Positions 1,594-13,319 of a stretch of DNA of 64,000 nt are shown here, piece after piece. Source of the DNA: Chloroflexota bacterium (GTDB lineage: Bacteria; Chloroflexota; UBA11872; VXNJ01); NCBI GenBank assembly GCA_965261345.1, contig OZ253449.1:1696001-1760000 (forward strand). The letters are read 5' to 3'. A model generated the notes under the pieces. It saw only the letters and a list, made by a program, of their open reading frames with translations, ran no database searches and was not told the origin of the DNA. The translations under genes and the position numbers were made by a program. The number at the start of each line of letters is the position of its first letter. Within the stretch, counting starts at the first letter, position 1.

Positions 1594-4059
1594 CTAGGCC
1601 TCGATCGGTTGCAGGACGTTGGTGGCCAATTCGTCGCCGGCGCGATCAACGACGACTTTGGCGCCGCTAACCAATTCGCCGGCCAACAGGGTTTCGGCCA
1701 ACGGGTCCTCGAGCAATTGTTGGATGATGCGCCGCAGCGGACGCGCCCCAAAATCCGGATCGTAGCCGCGTTCGGCCAATAGCCCCAGGGCCGCGACAGA
1801 GAGATCGAGCTCGACTTCGAGCTCGCGCAATCGGGCACGAAGGTGTTCGAGCTCAAGATCGACGATGCGATCGATATCAGCTCGTCCGAGCGAGCGGAAC
1901 ACGACCGAGGCATCGATCCGGTTTAGAAATTCGGGCCTGAAGGCCTTGCGCAACTCACTGGTTACCTTGGACTTCATTTCGCGATAGAAATCTTCTTCGG
2001 CCGCCGCCTCGACCGCTCCGGAAAAACCCAGTCCGCCGGCGCGCTTGATCTGCTTGGCCCCGATGTTGGAGGTCATGATCAAAACCGTGTTGCGGAAGTC
2101 GACGGTGCGGCCCTTGGAATCGGTCAGGCGACCGTCTTCCATCAACTGCAGCAGGACGTTGAAAACGTCGGGGTGGGCCTTTTCGATCTCATCGAGCAGG
2201 ATCACCGAATAGGGTCGCCGCCGGGCGGCCTCGGTCAATTGACCGGCATCTTCATAACCGATGTAGCCGGGTGGGGCCCCGACCAAGCGCGATACGGAAT
2301 GCCGCTCCATGTATTCGGACATGTCGATCCGAATTAGGGCTTCCTGGCTGCCGAACAGGAATTCGGCCAGGGCCCGCGCCAGCAGGGTCTTGCCCACGCC
2401 GGTCGGTCCCATGAATATGAAACTGCCGATCGGGCGCTTCGGGTCCTTGAGGCCCGCCCGTGCCCGTCGAACCGCCTTGGACAGGGTGGCGATAGCCTCA
2501 TCCTGGGAAATTACCGTGCGGTGCAATTCGTCTTCCATATGCAGCAGCCGCTTGGACTCCTCCTCGGCGATCCGGTGGACCGGGATTCCGGTCCAAACCG
2601 AGACGACCTGGGCCACGTCCTCTTCGAGCACCTGGGGGATCTCGCGGGCCCGGGTATCGAGCCATTGGGCTTCCATCGCCTCGGCCTTGGCCCGCATTGT
2701 CCGCTCCTGCTCGCGCAGTTCGTCGGCTTCGTCGAACTCCGATCGGGAGATTGCCGCGTCCTTGCGGCGGACCAGCTCTTCGACTTGTTTTTGCATATTG
2801 CGAAGGGCCAGCGAGGTCGATCCCGCGCGGATGTTGACCCGCGCCGCGGCCTCATCGATCACGTCGATCGCCTTGTCCGGCAGGAAGCGGTCGGTCACAT
2901 AGCGGCCGGCCATCTCCGAGGCCGAAACGACCGCCTCGTCGGTGATCTTGACGCTGTGGTGTTCCTCGTAGCGCGATCGCACGCCGAGCAGGATTGCGGT
3001 CGTCTCTTCAATCGTCGACTCGCGCACTCGGACCTGCTGAAAGCGCCGCTCCAGGGCCGCGTCGCGTTCAACGTATTTGCGAAATTCGTCGGCGGTGGTG
3101 GCCCCGATGCACTGTAGTTCGCCCCGGGAAAGCGCCGGTTTGAGAATATTGGCGGCATCGATCGCCCCCTCGGCGGCACCGGCCCCGACCAGGGTGTGCA
3201 ACTCGTCGATGAATATCACGCAGTCGTTGGAACTGCGGATCTCCTCGATAACCTTCTTGAGCCGCTCCTCGAACTCGCCGCGGTATTTGGTGCCGGCCAC
3301 CAGCAACCCGATGTCGAGGGTAAGCAGGCGGCGGTCCTTGAGGCTCTCTGGTATGTCGCCGGCCACGATCTTCTGGGCCAGGCCCTCCACGATCGCGGTC
3401 TTGCCTACTCCGGGGTCGCCGACCAGCGCCGGGTTGTTCTTGGTACGTCGCGAAAGGATGTGAATCACCCGGTCAATCTCGTTTTCGCGGCCGATGACCG
3501 GATCGAGCTCGTCGCGCCGGGCGGCGGCAGTCAGGTCGATCCCCAGTGAATCGAGGGTAGGTGTCGCCGAGGTCTTGCGGCGGGCGGCGCGTCCGCGGCG
3601 CTTGGGCTCCATCGCCCCCTGCGAGACCACTCGCACGACCTGGGCACGAACTTTTTCCAGGTTCACGCCCAAACTCTCCAGTACTCCGGCGGCAATACCC
3701 TCGCCCTCGCGCACCAATCCCAATAGCAGGTGCTCGGTACCGATGTAGTTGTGGCCCAGGCGTCTGGCTTCCTCGACCGCCAGCTCGATTACGCGTTTGG
3801 CGCGTGGAGTCAGGTTGATGTCGGCAATGACCACTTTTTCGCCACGGCCGATGATAAATTCAACCGCCGAGCGCACCTTATTTAGTTCGACTCCCAGGTT
3901 CCCCAGCGCCTTGGCGGCGATGCCGTCGCCCTCGCGCAAAAGCCCCAGCAACAGATGCTCGGTGCCGATGTAGGTGTGGTTGAAGCGGGTGGCCTCGTCT
4001 TGGGCGTAGACGAGCACCTTTTTGGCGCGTTCGGTGAACTTGTCTAATCGCTCGTTCAC
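1594..4059 (-). CDS. clpC: ATP-dependent Clp protease ATP-binding subunit ClpC
   Basis: Two Clp N repeats ([11 protein letters not shown]), NBD1 [14 protein letters not shown], short coiled coil, NBD2 [17 protein letters not shown], ClpP-docking LGF loop, GARPLRR. Confidence 0.96.
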
Positions 4060-5558: not shown

Positions 5559-7490
5559 CTAGAGGTGCCGAATGCGTTCTTCGACCGCGGTCCTTATGAT
5601 GTTGGGCAACGCCGCAACATCTTCGATCACCGCCCCGGCGCAGGATGCCAGCGGCTTGTCGTTGTAGGTGGGCTGGTAGGCCAACTGGAATTCCGACTTG
5701 ACCACTCCGACACCGAAGGCCAGGACCTTGTAGCGCTGGTCGGGCCGGCCGGCCCGGTTGTTGCGGTGCATGTCGATGAGGGCGCGCCGGAGGAGTGCCG
5801 GGTCGGAGCTGATTCCGTCGGTTACCACGAAGATGCTCTTTAGGCCCGGTTGCGAGCGCGAGCGCTCCAGGGCGGCCGCTAGGGCGCCGGAATCGTCGGT
5901 GTCCTTGTGATCTAGGTCGTAGAGGCGTTTGAATATTTCCGAGTGATCGCGGGGTTCGTAGGGTGCTGCCCGCCCCGAGAGCTGCCGCGGCCATTTGCAG
6001 TCCGCAAAGGCCCAAAGCGGTGTTATCTGCGAGGAGAAGGCGATCACCTCGAACGGGATCCGCAGGCGTTCATGGATTTCGATGAAAAGGATCGCCGAAT
6101 CGGCTAGGCGGTCGAATTTGCGGGTGGGGTAACCCTTCTGCACCATCGAACCCGAGATGTCGAGCAGGATCAAGCTGGCAAAGTCGCGCTGGCGGTCATT
6201 GCGCGGTACTCGCAGGCCCTTGAGGAATGCGTTCAACGGGTCGGTCAACAGGCGCTCGGGCCGCTGCAGGTCGATATTGCCGGTCTCGCCCGACCGGCGC
6301 TTGCGAGGACGACGTTGGGCGTCGGTGTCGCCCTGCCGACGACGGTCCATGATCTGTTCCAACCCCGGCCGGCGACCGTCGCCTTTGATGGTGGTCTCGA
6401 TCCCTGGGCGCAGGCGCTCGACCGCCGCCAGGTAGTCGAAATTCTCGTAATCGACGCGGTCGTTTTCCTCGCCGCGGCGCAGCGCATCAACCATATCGCT
6501 GGCCCAGCGCGGGTTGCTTCTGGCGTTGCGGTCGAGCATCCGGCGCCGGACCGAGCGGGCCGAGATCGCCCGGCGCTGCTGGACCCGCTGCTGGGCGCGT
6601 TTGACCGCCTGCGACCCGCCGGCGCCCTCGCGCAACTGAATGGTCTCTTCGCCGATCTCACCCTCGCCGACCTCGGCGTTGGCCCGGGCGGCCTGGGCGT
6701 CGGCCTCGTTGGCGGCCGCGTTGGGTTGACCGGCGTCCTCGCCGGCCGGCCGGTCGGTCTGTTGCGAGAGCGCCTCCCATTCCCCGATCAGGCCGGCATA
6801 CACTGCCGCGGTGCGTCCGGAGAGGCGTTTTAGCAAACCCTCCAGGTCGTCGGCGCCGGCCGCCCGCTCGAGATCACGGCGGGTCTGGTCCAGCGCATCC
6901 TGGACCAGTTGCGGAGTAAACGGGGTCTGGGTGTTGCCGGGCCAACGCCGGTTGGCCCAGTTCGCCGTCAATGCGTCGAGGAAGAGGTGGTGGGCTGGAC
7001 GCAGGAACCCGCTGCTGTCGGTGGGGGCGGCGACATCGGAACGCGGATCCAGGTCGGGCAGCAGGCGGTATAGCTCGACAAAGTAGGGTTCGGCTCCCGG
7101 ACGGTTTTGGAGGTAGCGGTCGTTGACGCGCAAATCGTTGACCGCGCTAACTAGCAGGCGCATCGAGTCGGCCGAATAGCCGTGGCGACGCTGGCCCCGC
7201 AGCCATTGTTCGATCCTCCGCCGCCCGGCCGCGCCGGTGTGGAATGCCTCGGCCACAAGGTGGCACATCCCGCCGATCAATCGCCGATCCGGCCAGATCC
7301 GGGTCAGCTGTTCGGGGTAGGTGATCAGCTGATGATCGGGGAGATAGCCCCACCATTGCCCGGGCAGGACGGCAATTCGCCGATCGCCGATGATTAGCCG
7401 GGTTGCCAGTTCCAGTTCACCCGGATCGAGGCCGGCCGACTTGGCCGGCTGCGATCCGGTTACGGCCGCGAGATGTTCAGGCGATACCAT
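5559..7490 (-). CDS. vWA/MIDAS-domain protein (CobT/NorD-like architecture), probable partner of the upstream AAA+ protein
   Basis: C-terminal ILLDISGSM (DxSxS), downstream T (DTDDSGAL) and VVTDG. N-terminal AVNDLRVN...PG segment and a low-complexity linker. ATG 7490 overlaps the upstream stop. Confidence 0.85.
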   Translation of the reverse strand: MVSPEHLAAVTGSQPAKSAGLDPGELELATRLIIGDRRIAVLPGQWWGYLPDHQLITYPEQLTRIWPDRRLIGGMCHLVAEAFHTGAAGRRRIEQWLRGQRRHGYSADSMRLLVSAVNDLRVNDRYLQNRPGAEPYFVELYRLLPDLDPRSDVAAPTDSSGFLRPAHHLFLDALTANWANRRWPGNTQTPFTPQLVQDALDQTRRDLERAAGADDLEGLLKRLSGRTAAVYAGLIGEWEALSQQTDRPAGEDAGQPNAAANEADAQAARANAEVGEGEIGEETIQLREGAGGSQAVKRAQQRVQQRRAISARSVRRRMLDRNARSNPRWASDMVDALRRGEENDRVDYENFDYLAAVERLRPGIETTIKGDGRRPGLEQIMDRRRQGDTDAQRRPRKRRSGETGNIDLQRPERLLTDPLNAFLKGLRVPRNDRQRDFASLILLDISGSMVQKGYPTRKFDRLADSAILFIEIHERLRIPFEVIAFSSQITPLWAFADCKWPRQLSGRAAPYEPRDHSEIFKRLYDLDHKDTDDSGALAAALERSRSQPGLKSIFVVTDGISSDPALLRRALIDMHRNNRAGRPDQRYKVLAFGVGVVKSEFQLAYQPTYNDKPLASCAGAVIEDVAALPNIIRTAVEERIRHL

Positions 7491-9801
7491 AGTTGGCCAG
7501 CACCGGCTCGAGCACCCGCAGCATCTCCGGCGAGGCGCCCTCGAGGACCCCGCGCCGGTACCAGCCGCAGAGTTGTTCGCGGTCATCGGACCCCTGGGCC
7601 AGCATGACCAGCTCGGCGGTCGTTAGCGCGGTGCGCTCGGCCACCGCCGAGGCCAGGTCGGGCGGGATATTTCCAAAACCCTCGCCTCCGGCTTCGTCCA
7701 GCTCGCCGGCCAGCAGGCGGCGCGCGACGCCAACCAACTGGCAGATTCCGGTCAGCAAGTCCCGGTCGGCGGTCGGCCCGGATACTTCGCCAAGGATCGC
7801 CAGCTCCTCGTCGGGTGGAGGGTACTCCATGGCGATGACCGCCCCGAAGCGGTTTTCGACCCCCTCGTTGAGCGGTTTTACGCCCGGCCCGTCGGGGGCC
7901 GCGGTGGCGACCAGGCGAAAGTGCGGATGGGCGCGAAACTGCGACCCATCGGGCAGCGTGACCAGCCCGGCCTTGTCAAACAGCCCATTAATGATCGAGT
8001 GCACGTCGGGATAGGCCAGGTTGTATTCATTGATGATTACGAAATATCCGGCCTGTACCGCCTCCATGAACGCCTGAACGTTCCAGCGGGTTTGGCCGCC
8101 GCGCATCTGCCGAACCGCGGTCAGGTCGCTCTTGTCGGTCTCGCCGGTAAACGAAAACTCGACCACCGGCAGCTCCCACTGCAACGCCAGGGTCCGCGCA
8201 AGTGCCGATTTGCCGCAGCCCGATGGACCGCGCAGCATGACCGGCCAGCCCAGCAGCACCGCGCTCTGGGCGAGCTGCACGGCGCGATGGGTGGACGCGG
8301 TCAGGCAGGGCAGCGTACTCAAGGAGGTTGGCAGGCTGCCCAAGGCCTGCGGTAGATTGATGTCGAACTGGGCCCGGAGCTGGCTGCGAACCAGATCCAG
8401 CTGGGTGCGCTGGGTAAGTCGCCGGCCGTTGTGATCGAAGGCCGTCAGCGCCGGGGCCCTGCCCGGGCTGGCCGATATGAGCGCCCTGGTCCCGTCGGAG
8501 AGCAGGAGCTCTTCGCCACCTGACGGATCGGCGGCAACCGATTCAGCGGGCAATGGATAGTCCAGCGCGGGCACTGGCCGCGCGGTACCGGGCGGCGGCG
8601 GATCGTCGACTAACAGGGTCCCCGCCAGCCTGGCCGGCGGTTGCTCGGCGGCCTTGAGATTGCCCAGCAGTTTGCTGGCGATCGTTACCACTTCCCCGGC
8701 AATGTCGGGCGGGGCGATCGTTAGCACCGCTAGGCCGCCGATCTGCGCCAGCGGCAAACCGGTCAGATGCCCGATCGCCAGCCAATGCAGCAGCGCCCGG
8801 GTGGAGATTCGATCGCGCATCCGCCCACCGTGTTCACGGTGATGGCGCAGTCGATCGGCCACCGCCACCAATCGCTCGGCGGCAATCCGATTGGCGCTGA
8901 CGCCGGCCGCGCCCAGCAACCCGATCCGGTCAAATTCAACCAGCAGCGAGTCGATTTCCTGGTCCGGCGGCAGAAAACCCATCGTCATATCGCCCAGTCC
9001 GACCCCGAAGCGTCGCCGCAGCGGGCGACCCAGTTCGGAAGTGCCGATGTAATTGGGGTTGGCGGTGGCGATGATCCCAAAATCCTGGTGCAGGGCGATT
9101 TCGACGTTGCCCATGCGGGTGGAAGAGAGCAGTAGGCGACCGGTGTCCATTGCCGAGGTGATCGCACTCATCAGGTCGGCCGGGAGCATGTTCAGTTCGT
9201 TGATCAGCAGCTTCTTGCCGTAAAGCATGGCCTCGGCGGCCGGTCCCAGCTGAGCCTGGGTTGACTGCCGCCCCTGCGCATCGATCCTCACCTCGGTGCG
9301 GTGGAAGAAATCGGTCAGGGTCGAATCGCCGGAAAAATTCAATTCGGTAATCGGGAGGTTGGCGGCAAAACAATAGGTCTTGGCCAGGGTCGTTTTGCCG
9401 CAGCCGGTAGGCCCGGAGATGAGGATCATTGAACCCAGCCGCGGATTGTTGTCAATTTGCGCGATCCGCTCCAGCATGTCTGCCATGCCGGCGGTCAGGT
9501 GGGCGAAGATTTCATGTCGGCGCGGCACGCTTTGCGCGAAATCGTCGGCTTCGGCCGGCCGGAAATGGTTGGCGTCGATATTCATGTTGGCGCGGGCGAT
9601 TTGGCTGGCGCGCGGGTAGCGACGGCCCTTAATTTCGTAGCAGTCGTGGGTAACAATCAGCTCCGGTCCCAGTTTGATGGTTTCGCCGGCGGGGATTTGG
9701 GCGGAGTCGTCCGCGGGGGCTGAACCCGGATGGGTACCGGCCGGGGCGGATGGTTCGGGTATGAGCCGGCGGATCAGGTCTAACAAGTTCGCATTTGCCA
9801 C
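7477..9801 (-). CDS. AAA+ ATPase with two tandem MoxR/AAA_5 (midasin-like) modules
   Basis: Module 1: GPTGCGKT, LLINELN, FGIIATANP, RRRF, STRALLHW. Module 2: GPSGCGKS, IINEYNLA, HPHFRLVAT, ENRF. GTG start. Confidence 0.88.
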   Translation of the reverse strand: MANANLLDLIRRLIPEPSAPAGTHPGSAPADDSAQIPAGETIKLGPELIVTHDCYEIKGRRYPRASQIARANMNIDANHFRPAEADDFAQSVPRRHEIFAHLTAGMADMLERIAQIDNNPRLGSMILISGPTGCGKTTLAKTYCFAANLPITELNFSGDSTLTDFFHRTEVRIDAQGRQSTQAQLGPAAEAMLYGKKLLINELNMLPADLMSAITSAMDTGRLLLSSTRMGNVEIALHQDFGIIATANPNYIGTSELGRPLRRRFGVGLGDMTMGFLPPDQEIDSLLVEFDRIGLLGAAGVSANRIAAERLVAVADRLRHHREHGGRMRDRISTRALLHWLAIGHLTGLPLAQIGGLAVLTIAPPDIAGEVVTIASKLLGNLKAAEQPPARLAGTLLVDDPPPPGTARPVPALDYPLPAESVAADPSGGEELLLSDGTRALISASPGRAPALTAFDHNGRRLTQRTQLDLVRSQLRAQFDINLPQALGSLPTSLSTLPCLTASTHRAVQLAQSAVLLGWPVMLRGPSGCGKSALARTLALQWELPVVEFSFTGETDKSDLTAVRQMRGGQTRWNVQAFMEAVQAGYFVIINEYNLAYPDVHSIINGLFDKAGLVTLPDGSQFRAHPHFRLVATAAPDGPGVKPLNEGVENRFGAVIAMEYPPPDEELAILGEVSGPTADRDLLTGICQLVGVARRLLAGELDEAGGEGFGNIPPDLASAVAERTALTTAELVMLAQGSDDREQLCGWYRRGVLEGASPEMLRVLEPVLANYGIA

Positions 9802-9889
9802 TTGGCCGATGTGTCAATGCCTAGGTTATTTGAATCGGTCTCCCATGCATCCGCAATTGGGAGTCCATATCGCCCTGAGTTTGAATAGC

Positions 9890-9918
9890 GTTATATACCT
9901 TGGTTTACATTGTGTCTA
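9890..9918 (-). promoter_or_regulatory. Putative sigma70 promoter for the AAA-vWA unit
   Basis: Minus strand TAGACA-N17-TATAAC. Confidence 0.55.
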
Positions 9919-9931
9919 AGTAACGTAATAT
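9904..9931 (+). promoter_or_regulatory. Putative sigma70 promoter for lexA
   Basis: TTTACA-N16-TAATAT; overlaps the divergent promoter. Confidence 0.5.
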
Positions 9932-9966
9932 ATTTGTAAAGCTTATTCATTCGAATTCGTTAATAC

Positions 9967-9982
9967 TTTGAACTATTTCAAA
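9967..9982. promoter_or_regulatory. Inverted repeat TTTGAA-N4-TTCAAA, candidate LexA operator
   Basis: Perfect 6-bp arms ending 20 nt before the lexA ATG; LexA is normally autoregulatory. Confidence 0.45.
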
Positions 9983-10002
9983 CACGGATTGAGCAGGTAG
10001 AT

Positions 10003-10635
10003 ATGGCGCGATCGCTCACCGCCAAGCAGCGTCAGGTATTGGACGTGATCAGAACGTTCCAGGTCGAAAAGGGCTACAGTCCCAGCGTTCGGCAAATCGG
10101 GGAGAGCATCGGACTCTCGGCCGCCTCGGTTCAAGCCCATCTGGTGGCCCTGGACCGCAAGGGTTACCTGAATCGCACCGGTGAGGCGCACGGCCTAACC
10201 ACGCTTGAAAACCCGGACGAGCGGCTCCCGGTACGAGTTGCCCAGATCATCGGTTCGATTGCCGCCGGATCCCCGATCGAGGCGGTCACCGATTACGAGG
10301 GGTATTTGCCGCTGCCAGAAGAGATCACCCCCGACGACCCCGGCAATTTCTACGCCCTAAAGGTCCGCGGCGATTCGATGGTTGAGGATCACATCCTCGA
10401 TGGCGACTATGTGATCGTGCGCGCCCAGACCACTGCCAACGACGGCGACGTGGTGGTCGCGATTCTCGATGACGAGGCCGCGACCCTGAAACGCTTCTAC
10501 CGATTCGGGCCGTCCGGCTACCGCCTACAGCCGGCCAATTCGCAGATGGAGCCCATTTACACCAACCGGCTCGAAATCCGCGGCCTGGTGTTGGGGGTCT
10601 ACCGCGGGCACCTCAAGCGCGTGCCCCCGTCCTAG
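10003..10635 (+). CDS. lexA: SOS repressor LexA
   Basis: wHTH (LTAKQ..., YSPSVRQIG), IAAG cleavage site, catalytic Ser in VRGDSM and catalytic Lys in ATLKR. Confidence 0.95.
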   Translation: MARSLTAKQRQVLDVIRTFQVEKGYSPSVRQIGESIGLSAASVQAHLVALDRKGYLNRTGEAHGLTTLENPDERLPVRVAQIIGSIAAGSPIEAVTDYEGYLPLPEEITPDDPGNFYALKVRGDSMVEDHILDGDYVIVRAQTTANDGDVVVAILDDEAATLKRFYRFGPSGYRLQPANSQMEPIYTNRLEIRGLVLGVYRGHLKRVPPS

Positions 10636-11816: not shown

Positions 11817-13319
11817 TTAAGCGGTATTCGAGCCGGTGGCCGGGTCGGCCGATCCGTGCTCGGGGGTTGGAAAACGCAGCGCCTCGAAGGCATGCGCCAG
11901 CCCCTGGCGCACCCGCTCAAGGGCGGTTCCCTCAAGGACAAATACCGGCAGATCCAGATCGATCGCTCGGTCCAGGGCGGCGTCACGGTGGAAGTAGCTA
12001 GAGCGCGTGGCAATCAACAGCTCGGCCCGGTCCAGGTCACGCACCGGAGTCACGTCGATCCCCAGAGCGCGCGCGGCTTTGCGGATTTTGCCGGCCGAAA
12101 TCCCGTGCAGGTAGGGGCGCAAAGGGTCCGGATCCAGGGTGGCCTGCGCGATTGCGCGATCGGGCGGCTGGGCCAGGCGGGCCTGGTCAGAGCGGGATGG
12201 GCGCAGGGTGCGGCGATCAATTTGGACCTGGCCGCCGGCGAGGGTGCGCAATTCGGCGGCCACCGGTTCGCCGGCCAGGATGGCGTCGGCGGCGATCGCC
12301 AAATGGGTGTGCACCAGCAGTTGATTGCGCTGGGCGATTTCAATTAGGACATCAAAAGTGGGGGCCGCACGGCGCTCCAGCACCGCTTTCCGCGATCTCC
12401 GGCGCCGGGCCTCGCGATCGCCCAGGATCACATTTTCAATCCCGCCGACGAGCCCGTTCAGGGTCGGGTTGGTAATCAGGTTGTGCAGGCTGTTCCCATG
12501 CGCGGTGGCGATCAGTTGGATCCCTCGCTCGGCGATCGTACGGGCTGCCCGGGCCTCCTCGATCGTGCCGATCTCGTCGATGATGAGGACCTCCGGGGTG
12601 TGGTTCTCGACCGCTTCGATCATCACCTGGTGCTGCAACTCGGGCGAGGCGACCTGCATCCGGCGAGCCCGACCAATCCCCGGATGCGGGATGTCGCCGT
12701 CGCCGGCGATTTCGTTGGATGTATCCACCACCAGGACCCGGCGCCCCAAACCGGACGAGAGTTCGCGTGCGATCTCGCGCAACAAGGTTGTTTTGCCGAC
12801 CCCGGGGCGGCCGACCAAAAGCACCGAACTGCGTGCATCGATTACGTCGCGCACCAGGGCGACCTGCCCGTATATTGCCCGCCCGCGGCGCAGGGTCAGG
12901 CCCACGACCTCTCCGGCGCGGTTGCGGATCGCCGAAATCCGATGCAGGGTGCCCAGCAGCCCGGCGCGATTGTCGGCGTCGAATTGCCCGATTCGACGCA
13001 CTGCCGATTGCAGGGTTGCCGCGTCTACCTGCCAGCTGCCCAATTCGATGTCGCCCCAGGGAAAGCGGGCCAGCGGGCGGCGGCCGATATCGAGAACGAT
13101 CTCAACTAGGGCGTCGGCCTCGCGTTGGGCCCGCACCGGTTTGGCAATGGCTTCCGGGAGCACCGCCAGCAACGCTTCAAATTCGGCGCGGTCGGTCTCA
13201 GCGTAGTGCAAACTCGCGCCGCTTGGCGTGCCCAATTCATCAGCGCGGCCTGCGCGCTCGGCCTGGGGAGCTGGTTCGGTGCCGATCGAAATTAGCGACC
13301 CTGGGTGGTTAGCGTTCAA
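11817..13319 (-). CDS. Ycf45/SpoIIIAA-family ATPase
   Basis: LHRISAIRNR, GRPGVGKTT, VDTSNEIAGDGD, EAVENHTPE, IIDEIG and ATAHG motifs; exact start uncertain. Confidence 0.88.
   Translation of the reverse strand: MNANHPGSLISIGTEPAPQAERAGRADELGTPSGASLHYAETDRAEFEALLAVLPEAIAKPVRAQREADALVEIVLDIGRRPLARFPWGDIELGSWQVDAATLQSAVRRIGQFDADNRAGLLGTLHRISAIRNRAGEVVGLTLRRGRAIYGQVALVRDVIDARSSVLLVGRPGVGKTTLLREIARELSSGLGRRVLVVDTSNEIAGDGDIPHPGIGRARRMQVASPELQHQVMIEAVENHTPEVLIIDEIGTIEEARAARTIAERGIQLIATAHGNSLHNLITNPTLNGLVGGIENVILGDREARRRRSRKAVLERRAAPTFDVLIEIAQRNQLLVHTHLAIAADAILAGEPVAAELRTLAGGQVQIDRRTLRPSRSDQARLAQPPDRAIAQATLDPDPLRPYLHGISAGKIRKAARALGIDVTPVRDLDRAELLIATRSSYFHRDAALDRAIDLDLPVFVLEGTALERVRQGLAHAFEALRFPTPEHGSADPATGSNTA

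Follow-up and report, generated by a model that had tools for sequence, protein, structure and literature searches.

A tandem AAA_5 ATPase coupled to a VWA/MIDAS adaptor in Chloroflexota, a candidate two-gene remodelling machine of the MoxR class

A 64,000-nucleotide stretch of a Chloroflexota genome (assembly GCA_965261345.1, contig OZ253449.1, positions 1,696,001 to 1,760,000), referred to here as the window, carries on its reverse strand two overlapping genes: one for a 774-residue ATPase with two AAA_5 modules in a single chain, and one for a 643-residue adaptor that ends in a VWA domain with a MIDAS (metal ion-dependent adhesion site). We describe the pairing of these genes, their domain content, the pattern of their motifs and their distribution among families. 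The pair is probably a self-contained remodelling machine of the MoxR class, within the AAA_5 branch that includes CbbQ, NorQ, CobS and midasin, in which an adaptor of the NorD or CobT kind would work with a ring made of three tandem chains. The ATPase belongs to AAA_5 and its gene is coupled to that of a VWA/MIDAS protein, as are those of MoxR-class ATPases. An initial annotation, made from the sequence, had put the pair forward as an uncharacterised tandem AAA_5 system with a separate MIDAS protein; it is conserved and could not be assigned to any characterised family.

Background

MoxR-class ATPases and their VWA partners insert metals and activate enzymes, including Rubisco, NO reductase and cobaltochelatase, by a mechanism that is only now emerging. 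The NorQD complex is the analogue used in the present work. According to its description in PMC13036017, NorD has a finger just ahead of its VWA domain (residues 403-448 of 638) that reaches into the pore of the ATPase and contacts the H2 inserts, the adaptor C-terminus rests on a post-sensor-1 loop, and as ATP is turned over the VWA domain is twisted relative to the N-domain and the linker is stretched.

Results and discussion

Two complete AAA_5 modules in one chain

The ATPase gene occupies positions 7477 to 9801 of the reverse strand and, as read from the list of open reading frames (ORFs) and the translation, encodes a protein of 774 residues (P0001) with a GTG start and a TGA stop. P0001 matches Pfam family AAA_5 (PF07728) in two stretches, with 120.2 bits against a cut-off of 22 and the best stretch at residues 126-265; scored module by module at the genome level, the two give 64.8 and 63.6 bits. 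A hidden Markov model (HMM) built from the modules of the family places its envelopes at residues 100-290 and 494-674. The halves of P0001 align with one another in hhalign at a probability of 99.8% (E 7.7e-28, 253 columns, 26% identity), from the helix ahead of Walker A through the lid. Every one of the parallel motif pairs that led the initial annotation to recognize two complete modules is present in the translation. Homologues number 82 at E<=0.001 among the 8000 candidates scored. The source names on homologues of the ATPase and of the adaptor, from Chloroflexota metagenome bins, are 'MoxR family ATPase', 'AAA family ATPase' or 'VWA domain-containing protein'.

The AlphaFold2 (AF2) model of P0001 has a mean predicted local distance difference test (pLDDT) of 79.5 and a predicted TM-score (pTM) of 0.81. 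Residues 1-30 are predicted to be disordered (pLDDT <50) and are followed by a putative small beta domain at residues ~41-95 (9517-9681; strands 48-50, 54-57 and 60-63, mean pLDDT 91-93 over 41-60). Module 1 with its lid covers residues ~98-400 (8602-9510), as delimited by motif columns, the module HMM and AF2 secondary structure, and module 2 with its lid residues ~495-774 (7480-8319), as delimited by motif columns, the module HMM and the alignment of the halves. The region between them, residues ~401-494 (8320-8601), was outlined from the conservation string and AF2 secondary structure; beyond a weakly conserved Pro-rich part it has a beta element of three strands (430-455), followed by a helix (465-479). 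All of these lie on the reverse strand. The model places a small beta element ahead of each module and gives both modules H2-insert and pre-sensor-1 hairpins.

Asymmetric motifs and an unusual Walker B

Motif counts refer to 71 full-length family members, with part of the loop invariance taken from an alignment of 33 sequences. In module 1, Walker A (GPTGCGKT, K136), Walker B (LLINE, Asn201-Glu202), sensor-1 Asn248, the Arg finger Arg264 and sensor-2 S-T-Arg335 are each found in 71 of 71. Module 2 has an intact Walker A, GPSGCGKS (family pattern GP[TSP]GxGKS), in which K531 is universal, as are the Arg finger Arg651 and the Asn591 of its Walker B, IINE; the residue after Asn591 is Glu in 50 sequences and Asp in 21. 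Its sensor-1 position is occupied by Y, F, S, A, Q or R and never by Asn (0/71), and no invariant sensor-2 Arg was found among the 71, the closest being R723 (47/71). By hhalign and AF2, the part of module 2 that aligns with the S-T-R of module 1 is a variable loop of low confidence. The sequence 'TTAEL', considered as the sensor-2 position of module 2, was dropped since hhalign of the two halves did not support it.

Module 2's post-sensor-1 loop, residues 638-652 including the Arg finger (GPGVKPLNE[G/A]VENRF), is invariant in the 33-sequence alignment except at position 647, which is Gly in 51 and Ala in 20 of the 71, the rest of the loop being nearly invariant among them. Residues of the H2 insert, and of the part after sensor 1, are invariant in both modules; in NorQ it is these elements that contact NorD (PMC13036017). 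Judged by its motifs, module 1 retains the full set for hydrolysis and module 2 appears asymmetrically degenerate; with Walker A and the Arg finger kept and the sensor-1 Asn lost, module 2 looks like a regulatory and docking module.

The canonical Walker B pattern hhhhDE is absent from both modules, as Asn201 and Asn591 replace the Asp in 71/71. Among the modules compared, this substitution is private to the tandem group, the distant tandem proteins P0170 and P0181 included. Asp-Glu is found in all compared NorQ, CobS-like and MoxR modules, in the modules of the Thermoproteota protein P0174 and in midasin modules 2-5; the modules elsewhere that depart from Asp-Glu are midasin 1 and 6 and modules 4 and 6 of P0172. 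Full-text searches, with subscription journals outside their coverage, found no literature that describes a tandem AAA_5/MoxR ATPase from bacteria or a Walker B with Asn-Glu.

A modular adaptor with an invariant MIDAS

The adaptor gene (5559-7490, reverse strand) most likely starts at the ATG at 7490 and not at 7586, where the longest ORF (5559-7586) begins, because the resulting 643 residues fit the full-length homologues. There are 78 homologues at E<=0.001, and those of full length (96-100% coverage) mostly have 635-682 residues. The ATG overlaps the TGA of the ATPase gene by 14 nt. A separate protein with a long charged linker and a full MIDAS, encoded across the ATPase stop, was part of the initial annotation, and the layout of the adaptor bears this out.

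The chain is predicted to begin with a folded domain, mainly helical with a small sheet, at residues ~20-245 (6756-7433), for which AF2 block means of pLDDT are ~85-96, dropping to 54-60 in the blocks around 141-160. This N-domain has no Pfam family and no significant PDB sequence match. A linker rich in Ala, Glu, Gln, Arg and Gly, residues ~247-344 (6459-6752), is predicted to be disordered (pLDDT <50). Next comes a segment of helical and basic character, residues ~345-436 (6183-6458), which includes RRPRKRR and was delimited by conservation among 36 sequences: it has 24 invariant columns, 15 of them within 384-436. The basic stretch just ahead of the VWA domain, which a helical piece precedes, has low AF2 confidence yet is highly conserved, and by analogy with NorD we propose that segment 345-436 may be a finger that enters the ATPase pore. 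The VWA domain and the C-terminal tail, residues 437-643 (5562-6182), were recognized from invariant columns, AF2 and fold matches; the MIDAS residues D444-x-S446-x-S448, T531 and D558 are invariant in the 36 sequences, and the R-I-R motif of the tail is conserved.

Pfam VWA_2 scores 25.2-25.4 bits on the window's adaptor, just below the cut-off of 27, and matches 36/36 family members at E<=1. The best PDB fold matches are the VWA domain of NorD (9qhd_G, E 1.7e-08) and the MIDAS domain of Rea1 (6qt8, E 2.8e-07), with MDN1 (8ql1) also among them. Against viral models, Foldseek aligns the adaptor over its full length with phage CobT-like VWA proteins (~700-800 columns, E down to 1.3e-15). Sequence and profile searches of the PDB with the adaptor returned nothing significant, and hhalign of its profile with one NorD and one phage-plasmid 'CobT' recovered pieces of the VWA domain only (42 columns for 'CobT'). 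The build typical of CobT and NorD (N-domain, flexible linker, C-terminal VWA with MIDAS) is thus matched by the predicted structure at the level of fold only.

Distribution and inheritance

A strong match to the tandem ATPase (E <= 1e-111) is present in 33 of 41 genomes of relatives. The eight without one are an 80%-complete genome of the window's genus, one of the 15 genomes of genus g8 (the other 14 have it) and all six genomes of genus g7. Most relatives have an uninterrupted frame, and in three the match is broken in two, with its parts in adjacent frames or on different contigs. In a wider sample of Chloroflexota, 38 of 301 genomes (among them an unpublished one, G251) and 13 of 171 genera are positive, clustered in a few families. 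The pair is single-copy, is inherited coherently with the clade, lies among core genes and has a GC content like that of its surroundings.

An assembly artefact, which the initial annotation had named as an outcome that would overturn its proposal, is not the origin of the two-module fusion. The fusion recurs in many genomes, and contigs of a second study (runs X3 and X5) cover the stretch as pieces that overlap or abut, with none reaching across the whole and no insertions or deletions reported; in X5 one base is uncovered at each of two junctions (8611 and 9034). Irregular copies were seen in three genomes: two adjacent frames with a break near residue 545 in G009 (locus L024, 7789-10040), a frame break near residue 660 in G010 and an insertion of ~100 residues between the modules in G021. 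These may be frameshifts, sequencing errors or true variants.

A proposed ring of three chains and its limits

We infer the ring of three, the contact between finger and pore, and the remodelling step from the features above and from the analogy with NorQD. Three chains would close into a six-module ring in which active sites (module 1) and docking or inactive sites (module 2) alternate, with module 2 binding nucleotide through its Walker A and offering its Arg finger to the neighbour. The adaptor would present, in order, an N-terminal client-binding domain, the flexible charged linker, the basic finger segment, the VWA domain with its MIDAS and the C-terminal tail. By analogy with NorQD, finger and tail would fix the VWA domain to the ring, while the MIDAS ion and the N-domain grip the client at two sites; the turnover of ATP by module 1 could then twist or stretch the linker, so that the client is remodelled or opened for the insertion of a cofactor. 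A NorD-like mode is proposed because the parts stand in the same order, the stretch at the finger position is conserved, the tail carries R-I-R, and the H2 inserts and module 2's post-sensor-1 loop are invariant.

The initial annotation had likewise suggested a pseudo-hexamer of three copies, and it is still a prediction, one which the modelling of a complex favours weakly. In whole-chain Foldseek searches P0001 matches the rings of dynein and Rea1 (~700-850 columns, TMq 0.32-0.48), and no stacked double-ring AAA+ of the ClpB or p97 type is among the top 50 matches. A complex prediction in which residues 98-774 met another copy of module 1 (98-400) scored 0.35, against 0.00 for the best of three controls, with runs agreeing in at least 91% of contacts and a partner pLDDT of at least 73. 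Of 80 solved complexes 58 attain the mark applied, as do 2 of 110 mismatched pairs.

Several points weigh against the proposal of a remodelling machine in this form. The fold matches have modest TM-scores and root-mean-square deviations of 13-20 A. In the complex prediction, only 7 of the 80 solved complexes attained the mark with a score of 0.60 or less, as did both passing mismatches, and by this calibration a prediction at the score obtained is oftener wrong than right unless the contact was likely beforehand. At the sequence level the adaptor does not significantly resemble NorD, CobT or any PDB chain, and the analogy for finger and tail therefore comes from position and conservation only. 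The Asn that both modules have in Walker B might leave even module 1 with little or no ATPase activity. The pair has no linked client gene, and genus g7, of the same family, has the system in none of six genomes, from which it follows that the system is dispensable there.

It is possible, at somewhat less than an even chance, that the ATPase forms a natural 'trimer of covalent dimers' with strictly alternating catalytic and docking sites and an Asn-Glu Walker B, and so represents a living two-module stage of the six-module rings.

Relationships of the modules

Midasin is the top PDB sequence match of P0001 (E 5e-42), a score that is not decisive because it sums over six modules. With module 1 as query, the best single midasin module reaches 30.4 bits, CbbQ 41.5 and NorQ 20.5 (below better hits); with module 2, the values are 50.8, 65.9 and 65.5. 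A library-wide profile search returned, in order, the few 50%-identity representatives of the family, two distant tandems and then giant multi-module proteins. One such giant relative is P0172 of Methanosalsum zhilinae (WP_013897510.1), with 3261 residues, six AAA_5 modules, a beta-propeller and a VWA domain. A search for shorter proteins with module 2 gave 31 hits, mainly fragments of the tandem family, many of them partial or on short contigs, and one distant protein of 362 residues.

A tree of 65 modules (183 columns, IQ-TREE, LG+C20), from which one module of the window's own genome was left out as too short, unites module 1 with the first modules of the distant tandems (support 100/99) and module 2 with their second modules (96/88). 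Modules 1 and 2 are sisters (95/79), and the tandem group joins one archaeal multi-module lineage, that of P0172 (86/83). Eukaryotic midasin modules group with those of the Thermoproteota six-module protein P0174 (4005 residues; 86/94). NorQ forms a separate, long-branched clade, and the placement of NorQ and of CobS-like proteins lacks resolution. The approximately unbiased (AU) test rejected a clade made up only of tandem and eukaryotic midasin modules (p-AU 0.002), a grouping that omits P0174 and was named with the tree already seen; it did not reject a clade of tandem, midasin and P0174 modules (p-AU 0.21). The tandem modules thus appear to be a lineage of their own, with their own duplication, within the assemblage of CbbQ, NorQ and midasin. 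Their grouping with a characterised family, which the initial annotation had listed as a refuting outcome, did not occur.

In the archaeal six-module proteins P0172 and P0174, modules 1/3/5 and 2/4/6 each form well-supported clades, and midasin modules 2, 4 and 6 also cluster. This odd/even pattern points to two-module founding units in the six-module lines, whose chain looks like a triplicated two-module unit. The initial annotation had spoken of a 'mini-midasin' of intermediate architecture. As a grade of organization the description stands; as a lineage it probably does not, given that modules 1 and 2 appear to have arisen by their own duplication and that six-module proteins with AAA_5 and VWA already exist in archaea. 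Separately, the metagenomic protein P0176 (2600 residues) has four nearly identical AAA_5 modules (terminal branches 0-0.011) in alternation with WD40 beta-propellers, a pattern suggestive of recent internal amplification.

Gene neighbourhood

The neighbourhood was surveyed at 24 loci from eight families (a first set of 16 and a second of eight). The ATPase and adaptor genes are adjacent at all 24, and no third gene common to all contexts was found; the pair appears autonomous, since no neighbour other than the partner is constant.

In the window, lexA (10003-10635, forward strand) diverges from the ATPase gene, and genes for a four-domain S1 protein and ClpC, with other core genes, lie downstream of the pair. 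The initial annotation had correctly noted lexA, S1 (as rpsA) and clpC as neighbours. The link to stress that it drew from them proves shallow. S1 and ClpC follow the pair at 8/8 loci of family f1, which includes the window's genus, and at 0/16 others. Divergence from lexA is confined to the window's genus (the window and 3/3 other loci); at 5/8 loci of family f2 lexA is on the same strand at a distance of 3-5 kb, and it is absent from 5/5 f1 loci outside the genus and from 8/8 loci of four further families. No terminator-like site was found between the pair and the S1 gene in the window.

The 201-bp, AT-rich region shared with lexA (9802-10002) presumably holds promoters and operators. An alignment of four members of the genus shows conserved blocks at ~9822-9833 and 9925-9960, and the single promoter-like match on the forward strand (9904-9931) is not above chance. 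The box GAAC-N4-GTTC does not occur in this region, its three occurrences in the window are not above chance, and a genome-wide scan of other palindromes gave no SOS-like pattern. The 10-mer GCGTTATATA has only two copies in the 2.39-Mb genome, at 9888-9897 of the window and at genome position 1538987 upstream of recA, where it sits within a 19-nt palindrome. It was dropped from consideration, for it is not conserved in relatives within the genus.

Elsewhere the surroundings differ. At f2 loci a GT4 glycosyltransferase gene lies upstream of the pair and, in most, an unassigned 306-residue ORF downstream. This conserved ORF, without a Pfam match, directly follows the adaptor gene in genus g8 (L015, 12840-13760; L016, L019, L020, L027 and L028); in L020 it is duplicated, with a VWA fragment between the copies. 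At further loci genes for a TIM-barrel enzyme, a protein with a molybdopterin domain or a BNR protein adjoin the pair, or mutL converges on it. This mutL stands immediately after the adaptor gene at the single f10 locus and at one of two f41 loci (L059, 13360-15180; L060, 13370-15226, the f41 case), in two further families of Chloroflexota. The layout of L060 is shared only by L061, and mutL was identified by the scan of L059 and L060. DNA-repair genes thus recur near the pair (mutL in two families, lexA in two further ones), with no evident mechanism.

Alternative explanations

Two AAA+ modules per chain are the hallmark of type II unfoldases, and a threading machine of the ClpB/Hsp104/p97 kind, with six chains stacked as a ring of first modules and a ring of second modules, would account for this much; we consider it unlikely. 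ClpC stands two genes downstream in family f1, and the complex prediction cannot separate side-by-side from stacked contact. The D1 and D2 modules of known type II proteins, however, belong to different clades, whereas modules 1 and 2 are sisters in one clade, and the multi-module AAA_5 proteins of solved structure, midasin and dynein, which are also the best whole-chain fold matches, put their modules in one ring. The obligatory VWA partner, too, fits the finger-in-pore mode described for single-ring MoxR ATPases (PMC13036017). Descent raises a different alternative, that the tandem is a surviving direct intermediate toward eukaryotic midasin and dynein, as a specific sister or ancestor of the six-module chain. 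The top midasin match, the clade with midasin and P0174 that the AU test left standing and the odd/even clustering that suggests a triplicated two-module unit speak for it, but single-module CbbQ and NorQ score as high or higher per module, the sister modules 1 and 2 group with another archaeal lineage, the exclusive clade with eukaryotic midasin (named post hoc, without P0174) was rejected, and among the modules compared only those of the tandem group have the Asn-Glu Walker B. We regard such direct ancestry as very unlikely.

A role as a remodeller tied to SOS or stress, under common control with lexA and in partnership with ClpC and S1, is suggested by the divergent arrangement throughout the sampled genus, the nearby lexA of f2 loci, the convergent mutL of f10 and L060, the two-copy 10-mer upstream of recA and beside lexA, and the failure to find a terminator-like site before the S1 gene. 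At the 16 loci examined beyond family f1 the pair is never followed by S1 and ClpC, lexA is missing from most other contexts, the GAAC-N4-GTTC box does not occur in the shared region and the 10-mer is not kept within the genus, all of which makes this role quite improbable. Conflict with phages might be considered in its place: MoxR and vWA cores serve in ternary systems of the sort set out by Kaur et al. 2020 (PMC7159879), the nearest multi-module relatives P0172 and P0176 carry beta-propellers as MoxR-vWA-beta-propeller systems do, and phages encode adaptors of similar build. PADLOC, however, yields only P-loop-sized matches to the ATPase (best mad8, residues 113-158) and none to the adaptor; no third effector or sensor gene appears in the contexts examined, no mobile-element genes were identified among the scanned neighbours, and the pair is single-copy, inherited coherently with the clade and placed among core genes. 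We rate an anti-phage function as highly improbable. The chance is slighter still that the pair is the CobS/CobT motor of an aerobic-type cobaltochelatase, or of a metal chelatase with a CobN- or ChlH-type subunit. The full-length alignment with phage proteins named CobT-like, a weak match of CobT_C to 8/36 family members (best E 0.028), a weak NCBIfam CobS match (34.7 bits) and an Atlas lead to a cluster with PF06213 in 15% of its members point that way; against these, the CobS match falls far short of the model's cut-off (558.55), the pair has no cob genes around it, and a search of the window's genome found no member of the CobN/Mg-chelatase family PF02514, which was found in 2/41 relatives only, where the tandem occurs in 33/41, which largely refutes a CobN-dependent role.

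Other observations in the window and its genome

Elsewhere in the same genome (G000:C1:945338-951025, reverse strand), two full UvrA matches (1102.5 and 1252 bits) fall in one frame of 1938 residues, which suggests a fused double UvrA. Within the window, the longest ORF for IspD (837-1913) overlaps that for ClpC (1594-4059, both reverse strand) by ~320 nt; as the IspD Pfam match begins at residue 131, the true IspD start is probably further downstream. Between tmk and pdxT, a gene at 11817-13319 (reverse strand) encodes a 500-residue protein with a SpoIIIAA-like P-loop ATPase region and a C-terminal phosphotyrosine-phosphatase-like domain.

Significance

A dimer fused by nature, in which a live site is joined to a degenerate one, would fix the order of sites around a ring, an arrangement otherwise engineered by linking subunits, as in the work on linked Msp1 dimers. 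How a P-loop motor with an invariant Asn-Glu Walker B manages the chemistry of Mg2+-ATP is a question that follows directly. A two-module grade exists in bacteria, and the odd/even grouping in archaeal proteins and the even grouping in midasin point to the same founding unit. The tandem pair belongs to a poorly studied group of Chloroflexota.

Comparison with known systems

The closest parallels are NorQ-NorD and CbbQ-CbbO, in which an AAA_5 ATPase with H2-insert and pre-sensor-1 hairpins likewise stands beside a partner of ~630-645 residues, itself composed of an N-domain, linker, finger and VWA domain with MIDAS. NorQ and CbbQ, however, are single-module homohexamers of ~265-380 residues with an Asp-Glu Walker B, whereas the tandem fuses two unequal modules with Asn at that position and shares at most ~30% identity with them. 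The GvpN equivalog model TIGR02640 gives 70.6 bits against a cut-off of 266.8, which does not place the tandem in the CbbQ/NorQ/GvpN subfamily; CbbQ_C (PF08406) is seen only in precomputed domains of some homologues, and a search for GvpA (PF00741) had no match in any control genome. Plasmid norQ adjoins a gene for a VWA protein of 588-645 residues, with genes for nor/cox-type oxidase subunits alongside, and NorQD is thus flanked by the genes of its clients; the tandem pair lacks a linked client gene. The initial annotation had remarked on the lack of Rubisco and cob client genes nearby, and this agrees with what we find: there are no cob genes near the pair, and a search of the window's genome for the Rubisco large subunit found none.

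CobS is also an AAA_5-type ATPase, and the adaptor shares its full-length build with the phage CobT-like proteins in Foldseek; the NCBIfam CobS model that the tandem fails to reach is TIGR01650. Midasin (Rea1/MDN1) resembles the tandem in its concatenated AAA_5 modules, in a MIDAS domain that is among the best folds for the adaptor (6qt8, 8ql1), in a long charged linker between the client-binding end and the MIDAS, and in a ring to which the P0001 model aligns (6hyp, TMq 0.41). It differs in holding six modules, linker and MIDAS in one eukaryotic chain of ~4,700-4,900 residues, where the tandem has two modules and its MIDAS on a separate protein of 643 residues, and the tandem modules do not pair with particular midasin modules in the tree. 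The archaeal six-module protein P0172 is prokaryotic, combines AAA_5 with VWA, shows the odd/even pattern and belongs to the nearest multi-module relatives in the tree; its modules, propeller and VWA domain, however, lie in a single chain, most of its modules have Asp-Glu, and its duplications appear independent of the split between modules 1 and 2. The kind of machine, a MoxR/NorQ-type chaperone, is already known, and what is new here is the apparent asymmetric decay of module 2 together with the private Asn-Glu Walker B.

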